DNA of 64,000 nucleotides, from assembly GCA_000004695.1 (NCBI GenBank), contig CM000150.2, forward strand, positions 128,001-192,000, in the 5' to 3' direction. The DNA comes from Dictyostelium discoideum. Taxonomy: Eukaryota. The notes under the pieces were generated by a model that worked only from the letters and a program-made list of their open reading frames with translations, was not told the DNA's origin and did not search any database. Made by a program: the position numbers and the translations under genes. Positions 8,313-49,445 of the stretch are shown here, piece by piece (position 1 is the stretch's first letter; every line of letters starts with the position of its first letter).

Positions 8313-8429
8313 ATTTTATTGTTGATATCTAAAATTATAATATGAGAAAAATAATAATATTAAAAATTTATAAAGAGAAATAATTATTTGTATAAAATTT
8401 GTGTGTGTGTGTATCTTAAATATATATAG

Positions 8430-8752
8430 GAGGAATTCCCAAATAAAAATTGTTTTTAGTTTTTAGTGCTACTATTTATACGTTTTTATTTTCTTAAAAA
8501 TTTCGCAAAACTCAAAAAAATAAGAGTTTTCGACCCTTCACAACTTTGTGCATAGTGTCGGTTCGGAATTTTTCAGTTTTTCGACCTTGCGCAATGATCG
8601 CGTCATTGTGCCGGTTCGAAATTTTTACTTTTCTTTCGAAAATTTTTTATTCTTCGAATGTTCTAGAACATTCTAAAAAATTATCTTAAATATTTGGGAA
8701 ATTCAAATAAATAAATGTTATTCATAATATATATATATATATGATAATATAA
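8430..8752. repeat. DIRS-1 left ITR (inverted orientation) with HSE-like site at ~8653-8676
   Basis: cgaatgttctagaacattctaaaa; terminus ...gataatataaaa at 8752. Confidence 0.75.
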
Positions 8753-8773
8753 AAGACTGATCAATACCCATCA

Positions 8774-9034
8774 CTAATTTACCATTAGGGCAGGGGATCT
8801 CACGGATACTAGATTGCGCAAAACTTCCCGTATTCTCATCAATAAGAAGATATGTGGTGATTGTATCCACAGTGGGGGCTGGGATGGTCCCAATGCCGTG
8901 TTCCAGGCCTGATAAAACTTATCAGAATTAGAACCGCCATCTTGCACAACTATCGCTGGTGTTAATGTAGCAGCCGCAACAAACAACCCTTGATCAAATT
9001 TTAATCTATTTCCTGCCTTCGCACTAATACGCAC
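8774..9034 (-). CDS. Hypothetical ORF, possibly the frameshifted continuation of the upstream tail-fibre-like gene
   Basis: Same strand, 100 bp downstream, GC-normal codon usage. Confidence 0.2.
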   Translation of the reverse strand: MRISAKAGNRLKFDQGLFVAAATLTPAIVVQDGGSNSDKFYQAWNTALGPSQPPLWIQSPHIFLLMRIREVLRNLVSVRSPALMVN

Positions 9035-9135
9035 ATCTCAACTATCGGAAGCAGGACCCGCCATCATATTTAAAATGATAGGTGTGCCGCCATCTTCCAT
9101 GTACGCTATGAGTGTTGCGTTCTGAATTGTAGGAC

Positions 9136-9519
9136 CTAGTGCACCATTACCGTAAGCTTGAATGAACTGGCCCTTAGGGGTAGGAATACCGTTATCGCGC
9201 CTGGAGCTGATAATATTTCGTTGTCCGTAACATCCTGTTTCGTGTAAGCCGTGTGAGTAGCCACTGATACTTTGGGTGCTGTAAAGACGTCTTTCACAAT
9301 GTCATTAATCTCTGCAGCGGTCACAACACCGCCCTGGATAACTTCCTCTATGTCTGGTAATCCTCCGTTACCACCACCACCGCCCGCTAATGCGATTATA
9401 TCGCCTAACGTTGCTTTCCTTAAGGCTAATCGTCCATCTTCATTTAGTTGGGAAATCGCAACAATCTCCTGACCCGTTATAGTTTGAGCTGCTGGTAATG
9501 TAGAAAATTTAACAGCCAT
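9136..9519 (-). CDS. Hypothetical protein with phage tail-fibre N-terminal-like sequence (MAVKFSTLPAAQTITGQEIVAISQ...GGGGGNGGLPD); likely a truncated gene
   Basis: GGAG Shine-Dalgarno 7 nt upstream of the internal ATG (ttatGGAGcgttattATG); resemblance to P2-gpH/lambda-Stf-type N-termini is from memory, not searched. Confidence 0.35.
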   Translation of the reverse strand: MAVKFSTLPAAQTITGQEIVAISQLNEDGRLALRKATLGDIIALAGGGGGNGGLPDIEEVIQGGVVTAAEINDIVKDVFTAPKVSVATHTAYTKQDVTDNEILSAPGAITVFLPLRASSFKLTVMVH

Positions 9520-10281
9520 AATAACGCTCCATAATTCAACCGATTTAAATGCTAAAATATCAATATATTGCAATGGTCAAAGCATGGGGTTTTATAGGAG
9601 CCCTACTAGACTCTCTCGTTTAAACTTTATACACTACTTATTATTATTGATTTAAAAATGAGTGCAGGACTCATTAAGGCTTGCACAGGGAATTGAACCC
9701 CAATCCACGTTATCGTTGGTGGCTCTAGGCCGCTGTGAGCTACATACATTCTGTCAGAAAGGTAACCTACGTCCCTCCAACTTTAACGCACTCTATTGTT
9801 GAGCTATACAAGCATAACATAAATGACCCAGCCTCGCAGTATTTATTACATTCGCAGCGGCGATGCACGCCTAACCACACAGTTTATGAACCCACTAGAT
9901 TATCAGATCCCGACTGGAAGTTTTGTCACGAACTCTATTGTAGGGTAATTAATCCTACGGTCAAGCCGTCTACCAATTAGTTAAGTACCTAGTAAATGTT
10001 CAACGATTAAGACATCATCCTCTGGACTCAGTCCGTATCTGTTCTTTGCGTGTCTGGCTATTACTGGCTTATTTGTTTGCAGTGGGTCTTTGCTATCATC
10101 GCTGAGACTTGGATGATAAAAATACCAACCAAGTCTTGTTCACCGCTCCACGTATAAGGGGAAAATATTGTCTCCTCAAGACAGCCCGAAGGTAGTCGGT
10201 GGCTAACCACAGCCCAACTCACCTTTTGCTCAGGATTTACCCTAAAAGGCTATTAACTTTATAACCTCATCTTTGAGTGCG

Positions 10282-10849
10282 ATTAGCTTTCCTTTTAAAC
10301 CAGCAAGCTTTCTTGGGGAGCAACAATCTAGTTTTAAAAGTTTCTTATTTCCTTGATGACACTTTTCTTCTTTTCTTTGGGAACAAGAAGCTTCATTGAT
10401 TTTGAATCGATTTGTAATCCGAGAAATGTAATTGATTGAGTTGGTTCAAGAACAATCTTTTCTAGATTCAGCTTGAAACCTAGTTTGACAAGTAAGTCCA
10501 TTGTCTTTTTGAGGTTGGATAAACATTCTTCTTTTGTTGAACCGACGATTAATAGATCGTCCAAGTAAGCGATTACGGACACGTTGATATCTCTCAACAT
10601 TCGAAGTACATGTCTTAACAACATTGTAAAGATACGAGGAGCTGTCGATAACCCGAACGGCATTGTTTTCCAACGGTAGTGCGAACCTTTCCACACGAAG
10701 CGGAATAAGTCTCTGTATTGCGGATCTACTAAAACGTGGAGGTAGGCTTTCTTGATATCGAGTTTTACCATGTAATAACCTTGTTTGACCATTGACGGTA
10801 GATTCTTGATTCCTTCCATCTTGAATGATTGGTTGTTGATGTAAGTGTT
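10282..10849 (-). pseudogene. DIRS-1 RT-region fragment (element coords ~1912-2480), target of another nested DIRS insertion
   Basis: 161-aa ORF 10334..10819 is identical to the RT core; abuts a plus-oriented left ITR at 10850. Confidence 0.8.
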
Positions 10850-11762
10850 TATTTATATTATCATATATATATATATTATGAATAACATTTATTTATTTGA
10901 ATTTCCCAAATATTTAAGATAATTTTTTAGAATGTTCTAGAACATTTGAAGAATAAAAAATTTTCAAAAGAAAAGTAAAAATTTCGAACAGGCACAATGA
11001 CGAGATAATTGCGCAAGGTCGAAAAACATAAAAATACCGAACCGACACAATGCACAAATTTGTGAAGGGTCGAAAACACTTATTTTTTTGAGTTTTGCGA
11101 AATTTTTAAGAAAATAAAAACGTATAAATAGTAGCACTAAAAACTAAAACAATTTGATTTATTTTATTTGGGAATTCCTCCTATATATATTTAAGATATA
11201 CACACACACAAATTTTATACAAATAATTATTTCTCTTTATTAATTTTTAATATTATTATTTTTCTCATATTATAATTTTAGATATCAAAAATAAAATATG
11301 TCTACAACTGTTAATAATAATTATACCTCTAGTAGTAGTACCTCTGCCTCTAATAGCGCTGAATCCTTTGATTTAAGAATGAAATCAATGGAGGATCAAA
11401 TCAACAACCTTTCTTTAGACTTTACAAGATTCATGAAAGAACCTATGTTCTCATCTAATACCAATTCACGTAGCCAACCTTCTCATGATGATTCTGACAC
11501 TGAGAATGAACAAAGTGAAGATGAATCAAGTAACAATGTCGATGTTCCAACCGATTATAAATTATCCGATACCTTACTTGGTCAGTACAAACATATGGTA
11601 AACAATCAAGGTTTACTCGTCGAAGAAGAATGTATCCTCAAGAAAGATGAGATATCCGAATTGAATAAAGTATTCAACTTTCCATCCAACTTCCAAGTCA
11701 ACGTCGCTCCATTCGGTACACCTGAAGGTATTACTGTATCATCCAACGTCAAGAACAATGAT
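10850..11762 (+). mobile_element. DIRS-1 5' fragment: left ITR plus first 155 codons of ORF1, then truncated
   Basis: ITR 10850-11180, HSE at ~10930, ORF1 11298..11765 ends in stop where homology is lost. Confidence 0.8.
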
Positions 11763-11765
11763 TAA
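11298..11765 (+). pseudogene. DIRS-1 ORF1, 3'-truncated
   Basis: 155 aa identical in register to ORF1 N-terminus. Confidence 0.75.
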
Positions 11766-12419
11766 TGTAAAAAAATAAAAAAAAATAATAAAAAAAATGA
11801 AACCATAAAACATAAATAAAATGATATGTTTTATTTTTTAATTTAATTTTGTATAAATATTTGTGAATACAATGAGAAATAATATACCGGGTTACACTGA
11901 ATTATATAAATAATAACATAATCTTTCTGAAAAACTTATTAATTTTTTTTTTTTTTTTTTTTTATTTTTTTATTTTTTTTTTTTTTAGTAATTGTTGACT
12001 AAAACCTATAAATATTTTCATTTATGTAACTACTGTATTCTAAACTTAACTATAATTATATATTTGATATGTGTTTATTAATAATTTACCATTATAAATT
12101 GTAAAATAATTTTTAATTTTTTTTTTTTTTACCTTTTTTTTTATCTTTAATTTTTTTTTATCTTTTTTTTTTAACCTTTTTTTTTTATCTTTTTTTAACC
12201 TTTTTTTTATCTTTTTTTTTTTTTTTCTAAAATATTATTGCTACATTTGTTGTTAAAAAAAAATAGGAATTTTATTTTTTTTTTATATTTTTTTTCATCA
12301 CACATTCACAAACATGCTTTATTTTTTAAAAAAAAAATATTTAAATTAAAAAAACATGCTTTATTTTTTTTTACAAAAATAAATTTTTTTTTTTTTATTT
12401 TTTTTTTTAAACCTATAAA

Positions 12420-13121
12420 CACAGCAAAGAAAAATGCACCTTTAAAGCAAATTTAAAGTAAAGTTGATTTAAATTGGATTTAAATTGAATTTAAAGCCGC
12501 GTTTAAAAAATTCATTTTTAAGGTAATTTTTAAGGTAATTTTTAAGATATTTAAAAATGCCTTTAAAATTTGCTTAAAAATTTATTTTAAAGGTAATTTT
12601 AAAGGTGATTTTTAAGGTAATTTTTAAAATGATTTTTAAGATATTTAAAAATACCTTTAAAATTTATTTTAAATTAATTTTAAATAGGATTTAAAGTAGA
12701 TTTAAAGTAGATTTAAAGTGAATTTAAATTTCCTTAATATATAAATTTAAGGTTTTTAATAAAAAAGATCTAATTATAGATAAAAAAAATGGGGATAAAA
12801 TATTCTATCATTTTTAAATTTTCATCAAAGCAATCAAATGGTCGGGGGATCGAATCCCTTTTGGTAATTTTTGAAAAAATTAAAAAAAAAAAATTTAAAA
12901 AATTTATCCGTTAAATAACGGCTTCGAACTCAGGACCTCGCTTTTAAAGCGATTAAAAAGGTAATTTTAAAGGTAATTTTAAAGGTAATTTTAAAGGTGA
13001 TTTTAAAGTAACCTTAAAAATTACCTTTCAAATTACCTTTAAAATTGCTTTAATTCAGGACTTTAAAGCAAATTTAAATTTAATTTAAAGCGAATTTAAA
13101 GGTGGTTTTTTCTTTGCTGTG
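12420..13121. mobile_element. MITE-like non-coding TIR element (termini cacagcRaagaaaaa...ttttcttYgctgtg), DDT/thug-like Dictyostelium DNA-transposon derivative; family assignment uncertain
   Basis: ~28-bp imperfect terminal inverted repeats, subterminal ggtaattttaaagg repeats, internal T-arm-like motifs. Confidence 0.6.
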
Positions 13122-13473
13122 AAATATTTTGCTTTTTTTTTTTTTTTTTTTTTTTTATTATTTTTTTTTACCAACACATAACGACTCTTCCTTACTTATA
13201 ATATATAAGCAAATAACATTAAAAAAATTGTTAAATTATTTACATAACTTTTACGTAAAAACGAACGGATTTTTATTTTTATTTTTATTTTTTTTCAATT
13301 TTTTTTTTTTTTGTTTCGGTTATTATTTTTCAGACTTAAATTATTATTTATAAATTAAATATAAAAAATAATATTGCATCATCTGGAAATGGTAATTATT
13401 TAAATTGATATTATCCAACTTCGCTTATTTTAAATAAAAATGAAACTGCACTAAATCAAAACTGGTAAGGTAA

Positions 13474-14027
13474 GATGATTTTTAAGGTAATTTTTAAGAT
13501 AATTTTTAAGATATTTAAAAAATACCTTTAAAATTTATTTTAAATTAATTTTAAATAGGATTTAAAGTAGATTTAAAGTATATTTAAAGTGAATTTAAAT
13601 TTCCTTTAAGTATAAATTTAAGGTTTTTAATTAAAAAGATCCATTTTTAGATCAAAAAAATGGGGATAAAATATTCTACCATATTTAAATTTTCATCAAA
13701 GCAATCAAATGGTGTAATGGTTGATGAGACTATCCTTTGATAGAGGGTCGGGGGATCGAATCCCTTTTGGTAATTTTTGAGAAATTAAAAAAAAAAATTT
13801 TAAAAAATTTATCCGTTAAATAACGGCTTCGAACCCAGGACCTCGCTTTTAAAGCGATTAAAAAGGTAATTTTAAAGGTAATTTTAAAGGTAATTTTTAA
13901 GGTGATTTTAAAGTAACCTTAAAAATTACCTTTAAAATTACCTTAAAAATTGCTTTAATTCAGGACTTTAAATTCGCTTTAAATTAAATTTAAATTTGCT
14001 TTAAAGGTGGTTTTTTCTTCGCTGTGT
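13474..14027. mobile_element. MITE-like TIR element, 5'-truncated copy
   Basis: Matches internal and right-terminal parts of 12420-13121; ends ...ggtggttttttcttcgctgtg. Confidence 0.55.
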
Positions 14028-14735
14028 TAATGCCGATTTTTTTCATTTTTTGTTTTGTTTCTAATTTTATTTTGAGGATTTGAAAAATCTTGTTTATTTG
14101 GTTTTGAATTGTGAAAGTCAATAATATCTTTTTGATTTCTAAAATTTCCTTCTTTTAATAAATAATCGACACCTCTTGGTTTATCACATGTATGACATGA
14201 GAAATCATTGCAATTATAATGGTTAATCCTACAAGATGATCTAAATTCTGTTATATGCATTGTTAATCCATATGGTATAATTTCATAATCATTTTCATTA
14301 TTATCTTTAATTTTTAATTTATTATTAAATTGCGCTGAAAATAATTTTTTAATTGTTTGATGTATATTGTGAAACCATTCTTTTGGAACAATAAAAAAAA
14401 CAATTTTATTATTTTTAAAAAATGGACCAACATAATTTTCAAAATCTACCAATAATGTATAATCTGATCTACCTTGATGACTCATTCCTTCACTAAATAT
14501 TCTTAATAAAATAAATTTATATAAAATTGAATTTTTTATTTTATTAAACTGTTCTCCAGATTTATAATTTTTATAAATACCTTGCTCATAGTCTTTTGAG
14601 AAATCTAAATATTCTAAAAAATTTTTTTTTTCAATTAATAATTTAACAACTGAATAAATTTCAAAATAAAAAATTGACTCTTCATTTGTAACTCAAAAAG
14701 TGACCATCGATAGGTAAATTTGCTAAAAATATAGA
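14027..14735 (-). pseudogene. Fragment of a divergent paralogue of the 30505..33024 transposase (covers ~aa 255-485), truncated where the MITE terminus at 14027 begins
   Basis: ...SIFYFEI...LLRIFSEGM...GLTMHITEFRSSCRINHYNCNDFSCHTCDKPRG aligns to the full-length protein; stop codon directly abuts cacagcg. Confidence 0.55.
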
Positions 14736-14743
14736 ATCCATAC

Positions 14744-14783
14744 ACAGCGAAGAAAAAACCACCTTAAAAGCAAATTTAATCTA
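14744..14783. repeat. Solo TIR of the MITE-like family
   Basis: cacagcgaagaaaaaaccaccttaaaagcaaattt, no matching partner nearby. Confidence 0.5.
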
Positions 14784-15410
14784 AAAAAAAAACAAAAAAA
14801 GTATTATTTTAGATTTCTTCAACTTCATCAATAATATCAATGCTTTCAAAACCAATCACCAGTTCTTTTAAAATAAATTGATACTACAATTAAATAATAG
14901 CTGGTAAGTTAATATAATTTTTTTTTAAAAAAAAAAAAAATTAAAAAAAAAAAAAAAATAAATAATAATAATAAAATAAAATAGATAGACTAATTTGAAA
15001 AATAATAATTATATTTTAGGTTACCTTTCTTATTATACCAACAACCACTTCTTTTCAATCAAATTGATACTTCACTTATATAATAACTGGTAAGTCAATA
15101 TAATTTTTTTTTTTTAAAAAAAAAATAATAATATAAAATAAAGAGATTAATATAATTTAAACAATTATATTTTAGGTTGTTTCTTCTTTTATTAGAACCT
15201 GTAAAGTAAATGCTTTTGGTACAAATTATAATGGAAATAAAGTTCTGCTTTTCAAATTAGTCAATTATAAATGTTGTATTACCATTAAATAAAAAAAATT
15301 TCTGATTTCAAATACTTTTACTTTTTAATTAATTCTTTTTTTTTTTTTTTTTTTTTTAAATTTATTTTAAATTATTATTATAAAATGTTATTTTTAATTT
15401 TTATTTTTAA

Positions 15411-15715
15411 GTATTCTTATTAAGTGAACTTTATAATTACCCTTAATAATTACCCTTATTAATTATAATTAATAATTCCACTTAATAGTTATACTTAATA
15501 ATTATACTTAATAATTTTAATTATTAATTATATTTTATTATTATACTTAATAATTATGCTTAATAAATATACTTTTTAATTATACTTAATAAATATACTT
15601 AATAAATATACTTTTTAATTATACTTATTAATTATACTTAATAAATATACTTAATAATTATACTTAATAATTATACTTAATAAATATACTTATTAAGTAT
15701 ACTTAATAATAGTAC
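15411..15715. repeat. AT-rich tandem satellite (unit ~ATACTTAATAAATATAC / TTATACTTAATAA)
   Basis: ~18 imperfect tandem units visible by eye. Confidence 0.6.
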
Positions 15716-15719
15716 TATT

Positions 15720-16989
15720 TACGTTCCTACTTTAAAGATGCTTTTAAGTATTTTTTTTCGCCCCTGTGGAGATTAACACCCTCATTTAGGGGATGTCTTG
15801 ACCAGAACACAGGTTATCCCCTTATTTTTTCTTTTAATTCAATGGAGGAATGTCATGCCATGTAAACCTTTTGATTTTGGTAACAGGACAAAACGCACTG
15901 CAGCGGTCGATAAAGCCAAGCGAGTTGCTAATCCAATTCGTCGTACTCAGTTACTGAAGAAGATTCGTTAATGACTGATCGGAAAGTCAGCATCGCTAGA
16001 ATGGTAGATTGTCGTTGAGATGCAGGGCGTAAAGCCCAGCTATTGGCAAAGATGTAAGCGGCTTAAGAGCCCCTAATTAGTATCCGCGGTCACGGCCGCA
16101 CATCCTAGCCTATGGGCTCACACCAATGCGTAATATGGTAGCAAAAATCATGTCAGATGAAGACATCCCAGATCATGATACCCGTACATGGTATTGTCTC
16201 CAGTATCCAATAACCTCAATCTGCCATCAAACCAAATTATAATATTTAAAAAAAAAAATTTGAATCTCAAAAATCATTTTCTAGATCTGAAAAAACCCAC
16301 TTAAATTATTATTAAATTACTATTTTTTTTAATAATTTAGTAAATAGATATTTTAAGTCATAAATTAAGCGATAAAATCTATTTTTTTGGTTAACCAGCA
16401 TAGTCTAGGTGTTTATCTATTTAATATGTTTTTTGTGGATAATAAAGCATATTTCAATCACTAATGATATTTATTAAATTTATTAAATTTGTTTATTTTT
16501 TTTTTCCGTGATGGAAAATGGTAAGACCATTAGTTCGTTCTGCATTGCCCATTACATCACCACTTCTTACATGTCAGCGTCTGGTGAAGTTACGCTGGGT
16601 GATGCAGCCGATAAAGAGACACAGTTCGCTATTAACTCGACTGGATCGATTAATATGTAAGCGCCACGTTTTGTTCTGAAGGGTATTCGGGATGAGAGAA
16701 CACCTGTTTTTGAATGCTCATGAATTATCCAGCATAGTATGTGGAATTCTATAGACCCTATTACCAGAAATACGACCACGGAAGATCTTGGTTCGCAACG
16801 CGTTTGCTGAAGTGGTTCACACACAACTATCCAACAGCGGTGATTGATGTGGTTAAGTCCGTGGCCCTGGTTCTTGTTAAACATCGCGATTTGATTGGTA
16901 ACCCATCATTCATTGACACAGAGTGGTTTTTGGATGGTGAGTGTTTGCGTCATCTTAATAACGCACTGGTCATGGAAAACGAACCGGTT
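15720..16989. other. GC-normal island B, prokaryote-like
   Basis: Ends exactly at DIRS left-ITR terminus 16990; contains SD-preceded small ORF. Confidence 0.55.
15856..15972 (+). CDS. Small basic ORF (MPCKPFDFGNRTKRTAAVDKAKRVANPIRRTQLLKKIR)
   Basis: GGAGG 6 nt upstream of ATG (caatGGAGGaatgtcATG). Confidence 0.3.
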
Positions 16990-17025
16990 TATTTATATTA
17001 TCATATATATATATATATATTATGA
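16741..17025 (+). CDS. Hypothetical ORF in island B, runs into the DIRS ITR, probably truncated
   Basis: GC-normal codon usage; no recognisable motif. Confidence 0.2.
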   Translation: MEFYRPYYQKYDHGRSWFATRLLKWFTHNYPTAVIDVVKSVALVLVKHRDLIGNPSFIDTEWFLDGECLRHLNNALVMENEPVYLYYHIYIYIL

Positions 17026-17079
17026 ATAACATTTATTTATTTGAATTTCCCAAATATTTAAGATAATTTTTTAGAATGT

Positions 17080-17101
17080 TCTAGAACATTCGAAGAATAA
17101 A
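17080..17101. promoter_or_regulatory. Perfect 4-unit heat-shock element in DIRS ITR (GAAtgTTCtaGAAcaTTCgaag)
   Basis: Alternating GAA/TTC at 5-bp spacing. Confidence 0.55.
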
Positions 17102-17443
17102 AAAAATTTTCCAAAGAAAAGTAAAAATTTCGACCCGGCACAATGATGCGATAATTGTGCAAGGTCGAAAAACTGAAAAATTCGGAACCGACACTATGTA
17201 CAAAGTTGTGAAGGGTCGAAAACTCTTATTTTTTTGAGTTTTGCGAAATTTTTAAGAAAATAAAAACGTATAAATAGTGGCACTAAAAACTAAAACAATT
17301 TGATTTATTTTATTTGGGAATTCCTCCTATATATATTTAAGATACACACACACACAAATTTTATACAAATATTTATTTCTCTTTATTAATTTTTTATATT
17401 ATTATTTTTCTCATATTATAATTTTAGATATCAACAATAAAAT

Positions 17444-19357
17444 ATGTCTACCACTGTTAATAATAATGATGCCTCTAGTAGTAGTGCCTCTGCCTCTAAT
17501 AGCGCTGAATCCTTTGATTTAAGAATAAAATCAATGGAGGATCAAATCAACAACCTTTCTTTAGCCTTTACAAGATTCATGAAAGAACCTATTTTCTCAT
17601 CTAATTCCAATTCACGTAGCCAACCTTCTCATGATAACTCTGACACCGAGAATGAACAAAGTGAAGATGAATCAAGTAACAATGTCGATGTTCCAACCGA
17701 TTATCAATTATCCGATACCTTACTTGGTCAGTACAAACATATGGTAAACAATCAAGGTTTACTCGTCGAAGGAATCAAGAATCTACCATCAATGGTCAAA
17801 CAAGGTTATTACATGGTAAAACTCGATATCAAGAAAGCCTACCTCCACGTTTTAGTAGATCCGCAATACAGAGACTTATTCCGCTTCGTGTGGAAAGGTT
17901 CGCACTACCGTTGGAAAACAATGCCGTTCGGGTTATCGACAGCTCATCGTATCTTTACAATGTTGTTAAGACCTGTACTTCGAATGTTGAGAGATATCAA
18001 CGTATCCGTCATCGCTTACTTGGACGATCTATTAATCGTCGGTTCAACAAAAGAAGAATGTTTATCCAACCTCAAAAAGACGATGGACTTACTTATCAAA
18101 CTAGGTTTCAAGTTAAATCTAGAAAAGAGTGTTCTCGAACCAACTCAATCAATTACGTTTCTCGGATTACAAATCGATTCAAAATCAATGAAGCTTCTTG
18201 TTCCCAAAGAAAAGAAGAAAAGTGTCATCAAGGAAATAAGAAACTTTTTAAAACTAGATTGTTGCTCCCCAAGAAAGCTTGCTGGTTTAAAAGGAAAGCT
18301 AATTGCACTGAAAGATGCAGTTATCCCATTCAGACTTTACACTCGTCGAACAAACAAGTTTCACTCTCAGTGTCTGACTCTAGCCAATGGAGATTGGGAT
18401 CAATCATTCCACATTCCTCAAGATGTCAAGTCAGAGATTTCACATTGGTTAACAGTTCTAAACCAATGGAATGGAAAAGAAATCAGTCTGTTTCCAAGTT
18501 ACGACTATGTTCTTACAACCGATGCCTCGGAATCAGGTGCAGGTGCCACACTCAAGAAAGGAAGCAAAGTAATCAAAACTTGGTCATTCCAGTGGTCAAT
18601 AACTCAATCAAACATGTCGTCAAATCGTCGAGAAATGCTCGCGCTGCTGATGGCCTATCAAGCGCTATGTCAGAAACTGAACAACTGCAAGCTGAAGATT
18701 CAAACCGACAACACTACCACTCTCTCTTACATCAATCGCCAGGGTGGTCAGATACAGGATCTCTCAGTTCTGTTCGAACAACTTTGGAAACAATGCCTCA
18801 AGAAGAAAGTGAACTTGATTGGAGAGCATATTCCAGGATTCTTCAATGTAAAAGCCGACCACCTCAGTCGTCTTTCAGAGATGAATCACAAATCATCGTC
18901 CAGAGTAATCAAGAGTTACAACTGGCAACTGAAGAAGGAAGTGTTCAATCGCATCCAACTTCAATTCGGTCAAATACAGATGGATCTGTTCGCATCTCAC
19001 TTCAACCATCAAACGAACAACTACTCAACAATCAGAATGAATGCACTCCACCTCGATTGGAGTCAATGGAAGCAATGTCTGGCCTTTCCACCACCCATTC
19101 TTTTGCCTTCTATCCTGGAGAAGATGAACTCATCCAGTTCGAAGAAGGTTTCTATAATACTGATCTTCCCAATCTGGAGATCAGCAACTTGGTATCCGAT
19201 GATTCAAGCTCAAGTTCCTCGTCATCATCGTCACATGTTTCCTCAAGTACTGGGAACATTCCAAGAAGTATTGACCAAACAATCAGTAGAGTCGATACCA
19301 ATCCAGATTCAACAACGTTGGAAGCTGGGGATTATTCAACTTTCCAATCTCATGTAA
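17444..19357 (+). CDS. DIRS-1 ORF1(N-terminal 108 aa)-RT/RNase H fusion ORF created by the deletion
   Basis: ...NNQGLLVE|GIKNLPSMVKQGYYM...; 637 aa open. Confidence 0.8.
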   Translation: MSTTVNNNDASSSSASASNSAESFDLRIKSMEDQINNLSLAFTRFMKEPIFSSNSNSRSQPSHDNSDTENEQSEDESSNNVDVPTDYQLSDTLLGQYKHMVNNQGLLVEGIKNLPSMVKQGYYMVKLDIKKAYLHVLVDPQYRDLFRFVWKGSHYRWKTMPFGLSTAHRIFTMLLRPVLRMLRDINVSVIAYLDDLLIVGSTKEECLSNLKKTMDLLIKLGFKLNLEKSVLEPTQSITFLGLQIDSKSMKLLVPKEKKKSVIKEIRNFLKLDCCSPRKLAGLKGKLIALKDAVIPFRLYTRRTNKFHSQCLTLANGDWDQSFHIPQDVKSEISHWLTVLNQWNGKEISLFPSYDYVLTTDASESGAGATLKKGSKVIKTWSFQWSITQSNMSSNRREMLALLMAYQALCQKLNNCKLKIQTDNTTTLSYINRQGGQIQDLSVLFEQLWKQCLKKKVNLIGEHIPGFFNVKADHLSRLSEMNHKSSSRVIKSYNWQLKKEVFNRIQLQFGQIQMDLFASHFNHQTNNYSTIRMNALHLDWSQWKQCLAFPPPILLPSILEKMNSSSSKKVSIILIFPIWRSATWYPMIQAQVPRHHRHMFPQVLGTFQEVLTKQSVESIPIQIQQRWKLGIIQLSNLM

Positions 19358-20322
19358 TGTCCTTCGCTCGTACTACAAATACAAAAACAGCTGAGCTGTT
19401 AATGAAGTCATGGGAACCTTCAACTCTCAAAGTATATAGCTCCAGTTATACAAGATTCCGCAATTTCTGTACGTTGAACTCTTTGAATCCAGCAAACATA
19501 ACCTTAGTTGTTTTCATGGATTATCTTACACATCTGTTCAAGCACAAACCTCCGTTAGCCTTCTCAACAATTAACGGTCATCGCTCTATGTTGAATCAGT
19601 TGTTACTCCTTAGGAATCAAACTGATATTGTTAATGATCCATTCATCACAAGAATTATGACTGGTATTCACAAGTTGCGTCCTTCATCTGCAAAGTATAA
19701 AGAGATATGGGATGCAAATCAAGTATTCAAGCACTTATCTACTGTCAAAGTCATCCCTAAGTACACATACACTGCGCTATTAAACAAGACACTTGTACTC
19801 TGTAAAATGTTTGGTTTAGCAAGATCATCAGACTTGGTGAAGTGGTCGTTCAAAGGTCTCATTATTACTACTGACTCAATCAAAGGTCCAGTCATTAATG
19901 CTAAAGAACAAAGAAGTGGTGTTGTTTCAATATTAGAATTAACTTCGTTAGATGATACAAACTCTCAAGTGTGCCCTGTTCGCCACCTTGCAACATACCT
20001 TAGAGCCTCTAAAGGAAGAAGAAAGCCCCATTCGGGTGACCCTGTCTTTATTAAGAATGAGGGTGAACCGCTCCAAGTTAATGATATTAACTCAATTGTA
20101 CTATCAACGCTCTCAAAGTCAGGCATTGATATTGTCAAGTTCAAATCTCACTCTACCCGTTCCGCTATGGCTTCTCTGCTGTTGTCCAATAACGTTCCGT
20201 TCCACGTTGTCAAGAAGATGGGTCGTTGGAAATCAAACGATACTGTAGATTCCTTCTACGATAAAAGAATCATTGGTGAAAAATCTGGTGGTTTCTTAAA
20301 TACTGTCGTCCAAATTTCATAA
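17890..20322 (+). CDS. DIRS-1 ORF2 (tyrosine recombinase C-terminal domain intact)
   Basis: HSTRSAMAS and GRWKSNDTVDSFY motifs present. Confidence 0.75.
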   Translation: MERFALPLENNAVRVIDSSSYLYNVVKTCTSNVERYQRIRHRLLGRSINRRFNKRRMFIQPQKDDGLTYQTRFQVKSRKECSRTNSINYVSRITNRFKINEASCSQRKEEKCHQGNKKLFKTRLLLPKKACWFKRKANCTERCSYPIQTLHSSNKQVSLSVSDSSQWRLGSIIPHSSRCQVRDFTLVNSSKPMEWKRNQSVSKLRLCSYNRCLGIRCRCHTQERKQSNQNLVIPVVNNSIKHVVKSSRNARAADGLSSAMSETEQLQAEDSNRQHYHSLLHQSPGWSDTGSLSSVRTTLETMPQEESELDWRAYSRILQCKSRPPQSSFRDESQIIVQSNQELQLATEEGSVQSHPTSIRSNTDGSVRISLQPSNEQLLNNQNECTPPRLESMEAMSGLSTTHSFAFYPGEDELIQFEEGFYNTDLPNLEISNLVSDDSSSSSSSSSSHVSSSTGNIPRSIDQTISRVDTNPDSTTLEAGDYSTFQSHVMSFARTTNTKTAELLMKSWEPSTLKVYSSSYTRFRNFCTLNSLNPANITLVVFMDYLTHLFKHKPPLAFSTINGHRSMLNQLLLLRNQTDIVNDPFITRIMTGIHKLRPSSAKYKEIWDANQVFKHLSTVKVIPKYTYTALLNKTLVLCKMFGLARSSDLVKWSFKGLIITTDSIKGPVINAKEQRSGVVSILELTSLDDTNSQVCPVRHLATYLRASKGRRKPHSGDPVFIKNEGEPLQVNDINSIVLSTLSKSGIDIVKFKSHSTRSAMASLLLSNNVPFHVVKKMGRWKSNDTVDSFYDKRIIGEKSGGFLNTVVQIS

Positions 20323-21313
20323 TATATATATATATATGATAATATAAATTAAAAATTTAATTTATTAAATTATATTTTATATTAAATATATATATATATA
20401 TTAGTCCCATCCCACCCGCCCTTAGTCGGAATTCCATAAATCAAATTGTTTTAGTTTTTATTGCCACTATTTATACGTTTTTATTTTCTTAAAAATTTCG
20501 CAAAACTCAAAAAAATAAGTGTTTTCGACCCTTCACAACTTTGTGCATAGTTTCGGTTCAGAATTTTTCAGTTTTTCGACCTTGTGCAATGATCGCGTCA
20601 TTGTGCCGGTTCGAAATTTTTACTTTTCTTTCGAAAATTTTTTTTATTCTTCGAATGTTCTAGAACATTCTAAAAAATTATCTTAAATATTTGGGAAATT
20701 CAAATAAATAAATGTTATTCATAATATATATATATATATTTAATATAAAATATAATTTAATAAATTAAATTTGTAATTAAACAGAACCCTGAGACGTATG
20801 TGGTCTACCAGAAGGTATCAAATGTAGCAAATCGCGTGCTTTAGAACAATCGCATGTATTCGGTGTGTTATGTATTCCAACGTACCATACCCGTAATCAT
20901 TCGTTTGGTTTCAAATATGTGTTGGTATCGAAGAACCTACAGCGTCTTCAACCAGGTGAGCACCTTGCGGCGGGGGACAATTTTTGCACACTCCCCTAAT
21001 TTGACAGAGGGCGGTGACTAAATACGGGTGTGAAACTAACGTGTGTTTCATGTCACTACCAGAAGTCGAACAGGATGGAATGATTGCTACGGAATCATTC
21101 GTTAATGCCATGGCGTGTGATAAGATGGAGAGTCGTTTATTGCAATGGGGTGAGAACAATGTACTTGTTAAACAACTACAAACCTTATCCAGTGATCGGG
21201 GAACAAATTCGGGATGATGGTTTTTTATTCGCAATGCGCAATATCGAATCTGATGTTGGTCTGGTCAACATGACTGCGAAAGCATTGATGGAAGTGGATG
21301 TCATCTTGGATAA

Positions 21314-21835
21314 ATGCGTGTACGGCGACCTAGTGCAACGGTAATCAACATTACCATCAAGTCCAACCGCCTGCGTACAGGTCGTTCAGAAGTTCAGTTC
21401 TATGATAAACAATCCGACCCCTATGAAAAAGCAGACCGTGACTTTCCTATCAATCTGCGTGGTGTGTATGAAACATTATTGAGTCGTCACCCACATACCT
21501 TAATGTTAGAGCCTAGTCTGAACACTTTGGTCAATAATGCCATATCTGATACCGGTGGTTTGGATCGTCGAATGAATGCCCAAACTGGTGCAATCTTGGC
21601 GATGGATAAAGGTGTTCAGATCTATAACAAGTTCCTATCGGCTACTGGCGTGCTTAGATCTCTTTTGTTAAATGCATTGTGGCAGGTGTGCGTTTCAAGA
21701 TCTCTGACAGTCATGAGGGTAAAGGTGTTATCGTTCATGTCTTTAAAGATGAAGATGCACCGACATGGCGTGCGTACAGATGTCATCGTGGATAACGCCT
21801 CTATCACTAAAACTCTATTGAACAGTTTGAGTTGA
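21314..21835 (+). CDS. Hypothetical protein (173 aa)
   Basis: GC-normal ORF, stop overlaps next start. Confidence 0.3.
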   Translation: MRVRRPSATVINITIKSNRLRTGRSEVQFYDKQSDPYEKADRDFPINLRGVYETLLSRHPHTLMLEPSLNTLVNNAISDTGGLDRRMNAQTGAILAMDKGVQIYNKFLSATGVLRSLLLNALWQVCVSRSLTVMRVKVLSFMSLKMKMHRHGVRTDVIVDNASITKTLLNSLS

Positions 21836-22452
21836 TGTCCAACAGTCCTATCTATCAGTCCAAAGCAAACCGTGATCATCATGTGAGCTGGGTGATTGAA
21901 CATGAAGTAGAGCTGCTAGCGTTAACTGATCGCTTGTATTATGGGGCAGAGCAGATTCTTCGCATTAAGAAGAACCATGACTTCCCAACATATCCTGCTC
22001 GTTATCGAGCACCTTATGGGAGGTTTGTGATAACTCGTGATCCAGTAATGATTGTACCAGTGTATATCATCCTGTTGGAAAAGATGAGGGAATATTTGGT
22101 TTCCTATGCAGTGCCTAAGTTAATGCACTTCGGTACTTTATCTATTATTACTCAAGTAGACAAGTACGCCCTCCCTTGGCGTAATGTACCAACTCGTTTG
22201 GCTGGTGAGTCAGACATTCGTCTGTTCTGGCGGCTGGTACACAAACCGTCTATTATCATTGCCAATACACCGGCAATGCAGAAAGCAGTAGGTAAGTTAT
22301 TGCGTCATGAGAATCCAATGCGTATTGACAATTTGATGGATGAAAGTGTATCTCCACTAGGTCGTAATCGACCAGTGCAGATGTATAAACACATGCAAGC
22401 TTGTCGTGGTATTCGCTTTGAACGTCAATTGTTAACTGAAGGGGCCGCTTAA
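21832..22452 (+). CDS. Hypothetical protein (206 aa)
   Basis: ATGA/TGATG translational-coupling junction with upstream ORF. Confidence 0.3.
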   Translation: MMSNSPIYQSKANRDHHVSWVIEHEVELLALTDRLYYGAEQILRIKKNHDFPTYPARYRAPYGRFVITRDPVMIVPVYIILLEKMREYLVSYAVPKLMHFGTLSIITQVDKYALPWRNVPTRLAGESDIRLFWRLVHKPSIIIANTPAMQKAVGKLLRHENPMRIDNLMDESVSPLGRNRPVQMYKHMQACRGIRFERQLLTEGAA

Positions 22453-22468
22453 AGCAGATCGGCAAGAT

Positions 22469-23059
22469 TTGCTAATGAATGGAGAGCAGATCTGGTCGTT
22501 AGATCCTCAGTGTAATAATCCTAAAGTTCAGGTTCTCGCTGAGGATAAAACTTTTGAGATGTTGGTGCGTCCTCTGATAGCCAGCTGGCCAATTCAGAAG
22601 TTCCAAGAAGGGATGGCTCTGGGTAAGCGGCATTTCTTAACAGGGTTCCGCATTTCAAACAAAGGTATCCGTAACATACTGACCGAAGGGTATCGTGACT
22701 ACGATATGATCATTGTACAACTAATGGGCACTGATCTGACCGGTGGGTTCATCGATGTAGTGAAATTTAACTCATTACAAGCCCGTACCATTAACCATAT
22801 CAACAACGCCTTTGTTGCAAGAATTCCTGAATATGTCACTACTGCAAGTATGGTTGACTATTTAGAGATTCTATTATTCGTCAAGTTCGAGCAGGTCTGG
22901 TTTAGTTCCAGAAATCTATCGGCTAGGCTTATAAGAAAGGACTGGGCCATATCAAAAACCCTGATAAATTTCCAAAGAATCAAATCGCTGAGGATATCAA
23001 ACAAGGCGGTGTTTCCGATGGCCAGACTGCTCAGGTGTTTATCTCATGTGGTTACCTAA
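22469..23059 (+). CDS. Hypothetical protein (196 aa)
   Basis: 16 bp after previous stop, same strand. Confidence 0.3.
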   Translation: MLMNGEQIWSLDPQCNNPKVQVLAEDKTFEMLVRPLIASWPIQKFQEGMALGKRHFLTGFRISNKGIRNILTEGYRDYDMIIVQLMGTDLTGGFIDVVKFNSLQARTINHINNAFVARIPEYVTTASMVDYLEILLFVKFEQVWFSSRNLSARLIRKDWAISKTLINFQRIKSLRISNKAVFPMARLLRCLSHVVT

Positions 23060-23718
23060 CCGACCATAACTCCAGGATCTTTGTTCGTCCTGTTACGGTC
23101 AAGGTATTGGTAGCTTCTATGAAGCCTTTGTTGAATCACATTCTGCTACTGAGGCCATGATCTTTACCAAGAAACCATTGGAGGATTCAGAATGGTTTAA
23201 CCGTAAGTTACAATTGGTCGGTTAGGCCATACAGCGCGTCCATCTTGGTGAGGATTGAGGTACTCAAATTACAGTACCGGTAATAATGCGTCCAGGCTGG
23301 TCCGGTGTAATGGCGGGTAAGTATTACGTAGACGACAGTGGTCAGATGTAAGCCATTCATGAGAAAGATGAAGGTAAACTGCTGCGTATAAGGTCACTAA
23401 TGTATTGTCAGCATAAATATCGTTCGGGTGTTTATGAGCGCTGTTATGGTAAGTTGGCTATGTCGATCCCGTATTTCAACGTACTGGGCAAGATAGGGAA
23501 AAACGAAGCCATTGCTGGGCACGTGTCCGCAACAGAATTTGATGCTGCTTTATAACAGAAGATGTTGTCCACTAAACACCTGGATACTTCTTCTACGGTG
23601 GATCCGTTTATCATTCATCGTGAAGATGCAATTTATATAACGTGTGGTATTCGTGATAATACTGCTGGTTTAAACCTACGACTGAAAGGGCAGAATGTAG
23701 CCAGATGACGTAGGGATT

Positions 23719-24099
23719 GTGCTTGATCAGTTCTTAGAGTTACTTAACCGACTTCTACAGGTGAATATCGTTCATGCTGAAATGATTCTGTACTCGGTAA
23801 TGGTGCGTGACCCAAGCAAGTTGGATCATTGCTTACCGCGCGCTAACGAACAACGGCAGTTTAGTTCTTATCACGAATGTATCGAATTCCCCAGTCTTTT
23901 GGTGCAGTTGCTGTATCAAGAGCAAGCGGATGTTATGATGAAACCCATGACGTTCTTAATTGATAACCGTCAGTCACATCGGCAGATAGATTATATTACC
24001 CATCTGTTCAAGCACAAACCTCCGTTAGCCTTCTCAACAATTAACGGTCATCGATCAATGTTGAATCAGTTGTTACTCCTTAGTATCTTTGCAGACTAA
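23719..24099 (+). CDS. Hypothetical ORF whose C-terminus is encoded by an embedded DIRS-1 ORF2 fragment
   Basis: ...ITHLFKHKPPLAFSTINGHRSMLNQLLLL is DIRS ORF2 sequence. Confidence 0.25.
   Translation: MLDQFLELLNRLLQVNIVHAEMILYSVMVRDPSKLDHCLPRANEQRQFSSYHECIEFPSLLVQLLYQEQADVMMKPMTFLIDNRQSHRQIDYITHLFKHKPPLAFSTINGHRSMLNQLLLLSIFAD
23994..24083 (+). mobile_element. 90-bp DIRS-1 ORF2 fragment embedded inside island C
   Basis: ~97% identical to 19534-19620 (copy-3 variant); flanks on both sides are GC-normal non-DIRS sequence. Confidence 0.8.
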
Positions 24100-24110
24100 G
24101 GGGTAGGGCG

Positions 24111-24506
24111 ATGCGCACTACGGCAACGCTTATCATTGGTAATCATGGATTTACGGTTAAAGACTACAATGATGAGTTCTACAGTAAGGCAAGGGCGTAC
24201 TGCGCACGTTTCGTTAAATACCGGATTGAATCTAAGGTCGTCCAAGGACGGAGATCTTTTGTCAAGGTACCAGATCGTGTATTCGGCTCAGCTTCGAAGG
24301 ACCGTAAAGAGCTACACATTAACTGTTTAGCTGAATTTAAACAATTTATGTTGAATAGTGGTTGGAACCCTGAACGGTTCAAAGAAATCACCAGGGAATT
24401 ACCTGAGGGACGAGATGTCAATTCCAATGACCACCAGGTTGCAGTACCAGTTAGAGAAAGATCCTTCTGGTATCACGACCCGAATCAATACATTGCAAAC
24501 GGGTAA
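24111..24506 (+). CDS. Hypothetical protein (131 aa)
   Basis: taAGGGGtagggcgATG SD-like context. Confidence 0.3.
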   Translation: MRTTATLIIGNHGFTVKDYNDEFYSKARAYCARFVKYRIESKVVQGRRSFVKVPDRVFGSASKDRKELHINCLAEFKQFMLNSGWNPERFKEITRELPEGRDVNSNDHQVAVPVRERSFWYHDPNQYIANG

Positions 24507-24615
24507 AGGAAAGACATTCTATGCCATATACAACATGTTCAAACTGCAGAAGCTCACTGGCATTATGTTAATGCCGAAGTACATCACGACTTGGCATACT
24601 GGCTTACATGACTTT

Positions 24616-25334
24616 CACAGCGAAGAAAAAACCACCTTTAAAGCAAATTTAAAGCAAATTTGATTTAAATTGGATTTAAATTGAATTTAAAGCCGCGTTT
24701 AAAAAATTCATTTTTAAGGTAATTTTTAAGGTAATTTTTAAGATATTTAAAAATGCCTTTAAAATTTGCTTTAAATTAAATTTTTAAGCAATTTTTAAGG
24801 TAATTTTTAAGGTGATTTTTAAGATAATTTTAAGATATTTTAAAAATACCTTTAAAATTTATTTTAAAGTAATTTTAAAGAAGATTAAAAGTAGATTTAA
24901 AGTGAATTTAAATTTCCTTTAAACATAAATTTAAGGTTTTTAATAAAAAAGATCTAGTTTTAGAACAAAAAAATGGTGATAAAATATTCTATCATTTTTA
25001 AATTTTTCATCAAAGCAATCAAATGGTGTAATGGTTGATGAGACTATCCTTTGATAGAGGGTCGGGGGATCGAATCCCTTTTGGTAATTTTTGAAAAAAT
25101 TAAAAAAAAAATTTAAAAAATTTATCCGTTAAATAACGGCTTCGAACTCAGGACCTCGCTTTTAAAGCGATTAAAAAGGTAATTTTAAAGGTAATTTTAA
25201 AGGTAATTTTAAAGGTAATTTTAAAGTAACCTTAAAAATTACCTTTAAAATTACCTTTAAAATTGCTTTAATTCAGGACTTTAAAGCAAATTTAAATTTA
25301 AAGCGAATTTAAAGGTGGTTTTTTCTTCGCTGTG
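24616..25334. mobile_element. MITE-like TIR element copy
   Basis: cacagcgaag... to ...cttcgctgtg. Confidence 0.6.
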
Positions 25335-25469
25335 AAAAGATAATAATTTAATAAACTTTAAATGTTTTTTGAAAAAACACATTTAGGGTCAGTGATTTTT
25401 TTTTTCACTGCGCTACTGTAGTGAAATTAAATAATAAAATTAACTACGCTACTGTAGTGAAATTTTATT

Positions 25470-26825: not shown

Positions 26826-26902
26826 ATGACCTATCAGTGAATAATTGAATTAATTATAATTAACTCAGCATATTTTAAAAAAGATGGAGTTATCCTAGAA
26901 AT

Positions 26903-27472: not shown

Positions 27473-27725
27473 CTTAAAAATCACCTTTAAAATAAACTTT
27501 AAAATGACCTTGAAAATTACCTTTAAAATTATCTTTAAAATGACCTTTAAAATTACCTTTAAAATGCTCTTTAAAATTAAGTTTAAAATGCCCTTTAAAA
27601 TTAACTTTATAATGCTCTTTAAAATTACTTAAAAATATGATTAAAAATTATATTAATAATTACATTTTAAAGTTCCTTAAAAATTGAATTTTAAAGTTTA
27701 TTAATAATTACATTAAAGCACCTTA
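27473..27725. repeat. Fragment of a second MITE family (C-family), reverse complement of 34259-34507
   Basis: Direct comparison of the two stretches. Confidence 0.5.
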
Positions 27726-30373: not shown

Positions 30374-30504
30374 TACTAAATCATATATCTACTTTCTATA
30401 ATGCTAAAATTTGAATAAAATGAAAAAAAAAAAAAAAAAAACGTAAAAACTCGAGGAAAAAAAAAAAAAAAAATATTATTTTTAATTTCCAGCCAGCAAA
30501 CAAA

Positions 30505-47916: not shown

Positions 47917-49445
47917 AAGACTGATCAATACCCATCACTAATTTACCATTAGGGCAGGGGATCTCACGGATACTAGATTGCGCAAAACTTCCCGTATTCT
48001 CATCAATAAGAAGATATGTGGTGATTGTATCCACAGTGGGGGCTGGGATGGTCCCAATGCCGTGTTCCAGGCCTGATAAAACTTATCAGAATTAGAACCG
48101 CCATCTTGCACAACTATCGCTGGTGTTAATGTAGCAGCCGCAACAAACAACCCTTGATCAAATTTTAATCTATTTCCTGCCTTCGCACTAATACGCACAT
48201 CTCAACTATCGGAAGCAGGACCCGCCATCATATTTAAAATGATAGGTGTGCCGCCATCTTCCATGTACGCTATGAGTGTTGCGTTCTGAATTGTAGGACC
48301 TAGTGCACCATTACCGTAAGCTTGAATGAACTGGCCCTTAGGGGTAGGAATACCGTTATCGCGCCTGGAGCTGATAATATTTCGTTGTCCGTAACATCCT
48401 GTTTCGTGTAAGCCGTGTGAGTAGCCACTGATACTTTGGGTGCTGTAAAGACGTCTTTCACAATGTCATTAATCTCTGCAGCGGTCACAACACCGCCCTG
48501 GATAACTTCCTCTATGTCTGGTAATCCTCCGTTACCACCACCACCGCCCGCTAATGCGATTATATCGCCTAACGTTGCTTTCCTTAAGGCTAATCGTCCA
48601 TCTTCATTTAGTTGGGAAATCGCAACAATCTCCTGACCCGTTATAGTTTGAGCTGCTGGTAATGTAGAAAATTTAACAGCCATAATAACGCTCCATAATT
48701 CAACCGATTTAAATGCTAAAATATCAATATATTGCAATGGTCAAAGCATGGGGTTTTATAGGAGCCCTACTAGACTCTCTCGTTTAAACTTTATACACTA
48801 CTTATTATTATTGATTTAAAAATGAGTGCAGGACTCATTAAGGCTTGCACAGGGAATTGAACCCCAATCCACGTTATCGTTGGTGGCTCTAGGCCGCTGT
48901 GAGCTACATACATTCTGTCAGAAAGGTAACCTACGTCCCTCCAACTTTAACGCACTCTATTGTTGAGCTATACAAGCATAACATAAATGACCCAGCCTCG
49001 CAGTATTTATTACATTCGCAGCGGCGATGCACGCCTAACCACACAGTTTATGAACCCACTAGATTATCAGATCCCGACTGGAAGTTTTGTCACGAACTCT
49101 ATTGTAGGGTAATTAATCCTACGGTCAAGCCGTCTACCAATTAGTTAAGTACCTAGTAAATGTTCAACGATTAAGACATCATCCTCTGGACTCAGTCCGT
49201 ATCTGTTCTTTGCGTGTCTGGCTATTACTGGCTTATTTGTTTGCAGTGGGTCTTTGCTATCATCGCTGAGACTTGGATGATAAAAATACCAACCAAGTCT
49301 TGTTCACCGCTCCACGTATAAGGGGAAAATATTGTCTCCTCAAGACAGCCCGAAGGTAGTCGGTGGCTAACCACAGCCCAACTCACCTTTTGCTCAGGAT
49401 TTACCCTAAAAGGCTATTAACTTTATAACCTCATCTTTGAGTGCG
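47917..49445. other. GC-normal island A' (duplicate of 8753-10281) including tail-fibre-like CDS 48300..48683 (-)
   Basis: Identical translation products. Confidence 0.6.

Follow-up and report, generated by a model that had tools for sequence, protein, structure and literature searches.

The DIRS-1 cluster in the centromere region of chromosome 1 of Dictyostelium discoideum AX4 contains three phage-like islands, designated A, B and C, within the 64,000-nucleotide stretch analysed here (assembly GCA_000004695.1, contig CM000150.2, positions 128,001 to 192,000; hereafter the window, in whose own numbering all coordinates are given). Our analysis indicates that these islands are very probably dead, functionless fragments of a lytic phiKZ-like (Chimalliviridae-type, Agricanvirus-related) jumbo phage of Enterobacterales, integrated in the DIRS-1 cluster. 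Islands A and C are of phage identity and both are pseudogenised; C, moreover, exists in two alleles, and its junctions with host DNA are present in independent data. An earlier note on this stretch had proposed the horizontal acquisition of phage-like DNA now decaying in a DIRS-1 cluster, and this proposal is supported by the homology of C to phage genes for the beta and beta' subunits of non-virion RNA polymerase (nvRNAP) and a helicase, by that of A to a tail-fibre-like gene, and by the decay of both.

Island C, a decayed RNA polymerase and helicase block

Five open reading frame (ORF) fragments of island C match PHROG families of phage RNA polymerase beta subunits and DNA helicase (phrog_3295, E = 8.9e-45; phrog_3015, E = 3.7e-23), and Pfam returned no match for any island ORF. 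By tblastn, C matched 175 jumbo-phage records, with the best matches, at about 60% identity, in Agricanvirus phages of Erwinia, Salmonella phage SA002, Erwinia phage pEa_SNUABM_37 and Proteus phage 10. The island is colinear with some 4.2 kb of these genomes at 67% DNA identity, and its protein identity to the phage homologues lies at about 50-72%, with some beta' pairs down to 46%. Against Erwinia phage AH06, the aligned residues are 92-701 of gp267 (nvRNAP beta), 7-648 of gp268 (nvRNAP beta') and 1-182 of gp269 (a superfamily 2, SF2, helicase)—an order of genes that is kept in five phages, namely AH06, SA002, pEa_SNUABM_37, Proteus phage 10 and RAY.

None of these genes is intact or expressible, given the frame changes, the stops at conserved positions and the large deletions that they carry. 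The beta pseudogene is spread over several frames, with in-frame stops and an internal deletion; beta' has three frame changes, six in-frame stops and a deletion of residues 425-555 (131 codons) at about position 23700; and the helicase pseudogene is cut off by the terminus of a CACAG repeat. Stops fall at conserved positions, e.g., LGED(stop)GT against LGEDCGS. In an attempt to gauge decay, beta' was found to match 228 of the 273 columns that are invariant in the five phages; the phage that diverges most reached 85% when it was left out in turn. In these figures lineage divergence and neutral decay are inseparable without a closer donor, and the result for beta is confounded by out-of-frame alignment pieces.

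The start of the helicase pseudogene retains its prokaryotic signal: the ATG at 24111 aligns with residue 1 of the phage helicase and is preceded, at a spacing of 7 nt, by AAGGGG, so that the Shine-Dalgarno sequence claimed here by the earlier note stands ahead of the true start of the helicase homologue. Its Shine-Dalgarno sequences in the other two islands were also recovered (on the minus strand of A, GGAG stands 7 nt ahead of the ATG at 9519, and in B, GGAGG stands 6 nt ahead of the ATG at 15855). By contrast, the TGATG at 21832 marks no gene boundary: it falls within the beta gene, near residue 480, and owes its look of a stop/start overlap to a frameshift. The 95-bp piece of a DIRS-1 ORF within the last codons of beta' is 95.8% identical to window positions 19519-19613 and 5103-5197; it resembles filler DNA captured during break repair, and the independent contig L002, introduced below, has it too.

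The presence of island C in the genome is attested by data other than the AX4 assembly. A protein search with the C ORF found a 99% identical ORF (P0001) from Logan assemblies of public runs, where contig L002 (SRR26869267, seen in eight samples) covers window positions 20733-24030 and contig L003 (SRR26869246) positions 20794-22590. L002 begins in the DIRS-1 terminus, crosses the same junction as AX4 (...AAATTT followed by GTAATTAAACAG) and ends inside the DIRS-1 filler, and both contigs retain the fragmented ORF pattern of C. Relative to AX4, they share eight differences, among them six single-nucleotide polymorphisms (SNPs) and a 4-bp deletion, to which L002 adds further SNPs and a 9-bp insertion; the shared differences look like allelic variation rather than random errors. 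The protein cluster of P0001 also includes KAM9950918.1, from another D. discoideum assembly (GCA_054883475.1), whose 7.7-kb contig JBTAPE010000027.1 (L010) is 99.93% identical to window positions 20904-28098, reading across 24615/24616 and 3.5 kb beyond. Independent support for junctions was thus found for C only—on the left in L002 and on the right in GCA_054883475.1. All members that protein searches brought up were from D. discoideum or Logan, with identities of 99% or more; these searches did not extend to the genomes of other dictyostelids.

Because the junctions and frameshifts of C recur in independent data, together with shared SNPs and indels, contamination or chimerism is excluded for this island. 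The contamination alternative that the earlier note had left standing is therefore rejected for C on the strength of its independent junctions and shared variants, and A and B are without such independent support. A further possibility, that the islands would match cloning vector or E. coli at about 100% identity, found no confirmation: megablast gave no match to E. coli genomes or plasmids, and none at high identity among phages.

Composition sets the islands apart from their surroundings. The window background is about 18-25% GC and packed with DIRS-1 copies, and islands A and C have GC contents of 43.5% and 43.3%. Island B as a whole has 37.9%; its two parts, B1 (about 15745-16240) and B2 (16505-16989), reach 43.3% and 44.1%, and the 264-bp insert between them (16241-16504) only 16.7%. 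The claim of islands of about 45% GC in an AT-rich genome consequently holds, at 43-44%, for A, C, B1 and B2, and not for B as one block with its AT-rich insert. The GC content is uniform, at 42-45%, across all phage-like blocks. Tetranucleotide usage, a comparison that the earlier note had suggested, was scanned across the 64 kb in a 400-bp sliding window with two 4-mer Markov models, one trained on phage AH06 and the other on transposons from within the window (DIRS-1 and a second element). In this likelihood scan, phage-like scores were confined to A, B1, B2, C and second copies of A and B (A' and B', described below); DIRS-1 copies with a GC content similar to that of the islands scored negative.

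Islands A and B and their duplicated stretch

On its sequence, island A is a truncated and decayed tail-fibre-like gene of an Enterobacterales jumbo phage. An exhaustive HMMER search with its 127-residue ORF found a 453-residue protein (P0003) that is 56% identical, and the island is colinear with the first 256 codons of the P0003 gene at 46-65% protein and 65% DNA identity; an N-terminal MxVK(F/Y)STLP...GGGG motif is common to both. Compared with P0003, island A is truncated, at the DIRS-1 left terminus (8752/8753), and carries two frameshifts and one nonsense codon. P0003 is encoded on L009 (Logan contig SRR13790903_41), a 118-kb contig of an uncultured large phage with about 47% GC. In the 21 kb of it from which its contents were drawn, there are genes for a phiKZ-type prohead protease (Pfam Peptidase_S80), thymidylate synthase, topoisomerase and a Peptidase_S74 fibre, and L009 and AH06 share RNA 2'-phosphotransferase and thymidylate synthase genes at 35-60% identity. 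The assignment to an Enterobacterales jumbo phage follows from partial matches of P0003 to proteins of Erwinia phage PhiEaH1 (annotated as a tail fibre protein), pEa_SNUABM_37 and Serratia phage PCH45.

Other searches with island A were negative within their scope: its gene fell into no PHROG or Pfam family; megablast, blastn and tblastn of the ORF gave no match among phages; and tblastx matched L009 only, with nothing in the complete AH06 genome or in nine beta-containing loci with 5-10 kb of flanking sequence. When the whole window was compared by tblastx with the full AH06 genome and L009, matches were confined to 8766-9538, 20776-24615 and 47930-48702, and other hallmark genes (major capsid, chimallin shell protein, PhuZ tubulin, virion RNA polymerase) were not found nearby in this comparison.

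Upstream of the tail-fibre-like gene, the rest of island A (9541-10260) has no coding signal. It includes a tRNA-like sequence (9678-9813, minus strand) that scores 31.6 bits against Rfam RF00005, where the gathering score is 29; acceptor, D and T arms match, with a 71-nt insert in the anticodon loop. This sequence gave no hit in Rfam gathering mode, and ARAGORN was negative on it at default settings and produced a different model at relaxed thresholds; neither Rfam in gathering mode nor ARAGORN found anything in the window as a whole. A cluster of phage tRNA genes may have left this sequence behind.

Two deposited gene models for 'hypothetical proteins' lie over phage pseudogenes and are annotation errors, the products of a eukaryotic gene finder that spliced them. 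DDB_G0267332 (XP_647697.1, our P0002), an AX4 model over island A (8766-9700), joins three 'exons', each in a different frame, in such a way that the frameshifts are passed over, and is an annotation artefact; P0002 was considered as a divergent allele of island A and was rejected as such, being the AX4 gene model itself, with 'introns' placed over the frameshifts. Similarly, KAM9950918.1 (window 21270-22452) was deposited from GCA_054883475.1 as a 'hypothetical protein' over the beta pseudogene.

Island B consists of two phage-like blocks without homologues. Megablast and blastn of B and tblastn of the B2 ORF gave no match among phages; tblastx of B found nothing in the complete AH06 genome, in L009 or in the nine beta-containing loci with their 5-10 kb flanks; B ORFs had nothing significant among PHROGs at E values up to 10; and a word-indexed protein search with B2 yielded no candidate. 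Its foreign origin is supported by a composition as strong as that of C (the log-likelihood ratio of B1, +0.043 per base, is similar to that of C), by a GC content like that of A and C, and by prokaryote-style signals, among them a TAATG stop/start, which are individually weak. The hairpin and U-run of B1 (-18.6 kcal/mol, z = -1.5) are not exceptional, and a scan for promoters and terminators stayed at the level of shuffled sequence and was uninformative. Judged by composition only, B most likely comes from a fast-evolving region of the same donor. The insert between B1 and B2 has no second copy within the window and would be host filler or a small insertion; directly left of B1 lies an AT-rich tandem array of TTATACTTAATAA-like units (15354-15721).

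Islands A and B are present twice in the window, a duplication that had gone unnoticed in the earlier note. Positions 7435-19305 recur at 46599-58469 with 99.77% identity and are identical over 8289-17928, the differences between the two 11.9-kb copies being confined to flanking DIRS-1 sequence. The second copy is a contig between two gaps of 100 N each (46494-46593 and 58470-58569). The repeat is either a very recent real duplication or a redundant placement of a contig in the manual centromere assembly; the chromosome 1 centromere was rebuilt manually from shotgun reads, and the region was described as 'most but not all' transposon sequence (PMC2665215). The coordinates of all features are given in Table 1.

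Table 1. Phage-derived and neighbouring features of the window.
Feature	Position	Strand	Characteristics
Tail-fibre-like gene, 5' part (256 codons), island A	8766..9538	-	Three frames, two frameshifts, one in-frame stop
Non-coding phage-like stretch, island A	9541..10260	-	Upstream of tail-fibre-like gene; phage-like composition; tRNA-like remnant
Island B1	15745..16240	+	43% GC; hairpin and U-run, GGAGG then ATG, short ORFs; no homologue
Island B2	16505..16989	+	44% GC; open frame running into DIRS-1 left terminus; no homologue
DIRS-1 copy 3	16990..20772	+	Two complete termini adjoin B2 and C; element positions 898-1936 deleted
nvRNAP beta pseudogene, island C	20773..22452	+	AH06 gp267 residues 92-701; 5' end lost at DIRS-1 right terminus
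nvRNAP beta' pseudogene, island C	22460..23988	+	AH06 gp268; phrog_3015; tblastn pairs 46-72% identical
DIRS-1 ORF fragment, 95 bp (filler DNA)	23989..24083	+	Within last codons of beta' pseudogene
SF2 helicase, 5' part (residues 1-182 of 515), island C	24111..24615	+	AH06 gp269; tblastn 51-63%; one frameshift
CACAGC-terminated Dictyostelium repeat copy	24616..25337	+	Complete end cuts helicase pseudogene; junction also in L010
A' (second copy of island A)	47917..49424	-	Duplicated contig bounded by N-gaps
B' (second copy of island B: B1, AT-rich insert, B2)	54909..56153	+	Duplicated contig

Borders, contiguity and origin of the fragments

The termini of the flanking elements were fixed by comparing several copies of each element. 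One complete DIRS-1 left terminus (TTTATATTATCAT...) meets island A at 8752/8753, and another meets B2 at 16989/16990. The last base of the DIRS-1 right terminus (...AATAAATTAAATTT) is 20772, which makes 20773 the first position of island C. At the right border of C, a repeat starts with CACAGC exactly at 24616, and at least four further copies of it, in unrelated surroundings, begin in the same way. The four borders that the earlier note had placed at complete element ends thus agree with ours at 8752, 16990 and 24616 and, with the end moved from 20775 to 20772, at the DIRS-1 right terminus. The start of C shifts accordingly from 20776 to 20773, and the right edge of A from 10281 to 10260/10261, where the island meets an internal DIRS-1 fragment.

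These borders had been read as signs of one contiguous foreign segment split by transposon insertions; this reading is not supported and fails in the single case that allows a test. When DIRS-1 copy 3 (16990-20772, 3783 bp) is removed in silico, B2 does join C in frame, but the N-terminus of beta, which should then be in B2, is absent from it. Island C starts at VIKQNPETYVVYQ, corresponding to residues 92-104 of AH06 beta, and the N-terminal part ahead of this point is highly conserved, with 51 of its 95 columns invariant in five phages. B2 aligned to it with a score of 23, against a shuffle mean of 21.7; a score at shuffle level against so conserved a region rules out B2 as the N-terminus of beta. 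Additionally, tblastx of the window shows no phage sequence resuming past DIRS-1 copy 2 or past the CACAG repeat, and in pEa_SNUABM_37 the positions of the P0003-like gene and of beta are 82 kb and 224 kb, which puts the homologues of A and C about 140 kb apart. For these three reasons, the fragments are non-adjacent pieces of phage DNA. Recombination between two copies may have produced DIRS-1 copy 3 and would account for its non-colinear flanks. Its deletion joint (17768-17771) shows a 4-bp overlap, and the first ORF is fused there to the reverse-transcriptase ORF in a frame of 637 residues.

We propose that several fragments came from one jumbo phage with a GC content of about 44%. An amoeba would have engulfed phage-infected bacteria or phage particles, and some of the DNA would have escaped digestion and reached the nucleus, where end-joining may have inserted it at a break within the DIRS-1 cluster of the centromere, probably in a single event that took in several non-adjacent fragments. 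The insertion would have been tolerated there, as the transposon cluster is gene-poor. Under neutral inheritance, point mutations, indels and the 95-bp DIRS-1 filler would then have accumulated, and insertions of DIRS-1 and the CACAG repeat, along with deletions and recombination between repeats, would have cut and rearranged the segments; such repeat-driven rearrangement would leave fragments that end at complete element termini and yet are not colinear across them. The phiKZ-like phages are lytic and are not known as prophages, which makes a route through a bacterial chromosome unlikely.

Alternative origins account for parts of these observations. An assembly artefact, with phage DNA from the food culture (Klebsiella or E. 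coli) or chimeric clones stitched into the manual centromere, would draw on the shotgun-based manual reconstruction of this centromere (PMC2665215), on the N-gaps and the 11.9-kb contig placed twice, and on the lack of independent support for A and B. Such an artefact is already refuted for C, which recurs with both its junctions and with shared allelic differences in independent runs and an independent assembly. Frameshifts, stops and deletions are, moreover, incompatible with a replicating phage, A being frameshifted likewise and carrying a nonsense codon; a DIRS-1 fragment is embedded within C; and the islands match neither E. coli genomes and plasmids nor, at high identity, any phage. For the islands as a whole we regard an artefact as very improbable. 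Still less credible is a source in a eukaryotic giant virus or the chromosome of a bacterial endosymbiont. Amoebae often carry giant-virus insertions, and B is without an assigned source. Chlamydia-like endosymbionts also occur in wild Dictyostelium isolates (PMC12745789). Against this, the best and only matches are jumbo phages, the split nvRNAP subunits are phage-specific and stand in phage gene order, and Shine-Dalgarno sequences precede true gene starts.

Two further scenarios accept the foreign DNA and differ in how it arrived. Three or more independent captures of unrelated DNA in the same centromeric safe haven would suit islands that are mutually non-colinear, homologues of A and C that are about 140 kb apart in relatives, a B that matches nothing, and the native AT-rich DNA (17.7% GC) and Dictyostelium repeats that lie between A and B. 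We nevertheless consider this unlikely: all blocks share one GC range (42-45%) and one tetranucleotide signature, all islands fall in one 16-kb stretch of a genome that measures about 34 Mb, and A and C both point to Enterobacterales jumbo phages; end-joined foreign DNA, besides, typically arrives as scrambled concatemers. Somewhat less likely again is that phage fragments were ligated extrachromosomally to linear DIRS-1 or other transposon DNA and integrated as a mosaic, the termini reflecting end-to-end ligation. Four borders that are complete element termini, beyond which phage sequence never resumes colinearly, and the DIRS-1 filler inside C would fit this course of events. Yet the deletion in DIRS-1 copy 3, with its 4-bp microhomology, fits a recombinant of two inserted copies and explains the non-colinearity equally well, and DIRS-1 probably integrates from a circular intermediate via a tyrosine recombinase, which makes linear full-length ends an unobvious substrate.

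Several points weigh against a jumbo-phage origin of all three islands as we propose it. The Dictyostelium origin of the Logan contigs is deduced from DIRS-1 at both of their ends, not from sample metadata. A and B lie in a stretch carried twice, identically, beside N-gaps, and have no independent read or assembly support: exact-protein look-ups were empty, as was an AX4-identical C control, which renders them uninformative. B has no homologue in any search, and its origin is deduced rather than demonstrated; the route of uptake is likewise conjectural. No relative of the donor above about 60% protein identity appeared in INPHARED, IMG/VR or the JGI metagenomes, which leaves a single donor unprovable. 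The IMG/VR scans with the C ORF and P0003 found none, and none of the five loci that the JGI metagenome scan found, at identities of about 55-61%, came closer to the donor. Overall, the case is well supported for C and, as regards their place in the genome, unproven for A and B.

Comparison with known systems and features of the cluster

Island C has the same genes, in the same order and orientation, as the nvRNAP beta/beta'/SF2 helicase block of Agricanvirus-type phages (AH06, Ea35-70, RAY; SA002; pEa_SNUABM_37; Proteus phage 10), including a helicase start behind a Shine-Dalgarno sequence. Unlike that block, its three genes are pseudogenised, truncated at both ends and located in a eukaryotic chromosome, and all known relatives, metagenomic ones included, stand at much the same distance (about 60%) from its lineage. 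The fragments thereby preserve a jumbo-phage lineage that is only about 60% identical to anything known. As a kind, such dead-on-arrival foreign DNA is familiar: like nuclear copies of mitochondrial and plastid DNA (NUMTs and NUPTs) and Wolbachia-to-insect transfers, the islands are functionless, vertically inherited, polymorphic between strains, interrupted by transposons and decaying neutrally. The donor class is the unusual part—a lytic jumbo bacteriophage without intracellular residence, presumably taken up as food. No function is expected for the islands, and their biological impact is limited.

With these islands, the genome of a nucleus-forming-type jumbo phage may be documented for the first time as a molecular fossil in a eukaryotic chromosome; one or more pieces of a genome of about 250-300 kb would have entered the D. 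discoideum germ line by feeding, settled in the chromosome 1 centromere and eroded to A, B and C. Organelles, endosymbionts and eukaryotic viruses are familiar sources of foreign DNA fossils in nuclei, whereas cases from lytic bacteriophages are rarely documented and usually dismissed as contamination. We found no report of phage-derived DNA in Dictyostelium chromosomes in the literature, and a mention in the 2005 genome paper is possible. The case offers a testable example of a bacterivorous amoeba fixing DNA of its prey's viruses in the germ line, and it suggests that such DNA can survive in the transposon clusters of centromeres. If it is correct, more remnants would be expected in other centromeres or strains, and phage DNA, not just bacterial DNA, would feed the 'you are what you eat' gene-transfer ratchet in phagotrophs.

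In its general organisation, the region resembles the D. discoideum DIRS-1 centromere clusters described by Glockner and Heidel (2009; PMC2665215), with nested DIRS-1 copies, complete inverted terminal repeats, repeat fragments and few 'unique' stretches; it differs from them in that the unique stretches here are phage-derived. The largest unique centromeric region, on chromosome 2, was called AT-rich and non-coding, and foreign DNA went unmentioned (PMC2665215). Short repeats with the CACAGC terminus are found at 24616-25337, 12404-13169, 13471-14073 and 26902-30374, among others, in both orientations and nested, and near 25020-25080 one of them contains a stretch resembling a tRNA fragment (GGGGGATCGAATCCC). 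Another element, of about 5.4 kb and about 32% GC, has copies at 34505-39886, 41111-46493 and 58570-62812 that are 99.4-99.6% identical to one another, the DIRS-1 copies being far less alike (94-97.7%).

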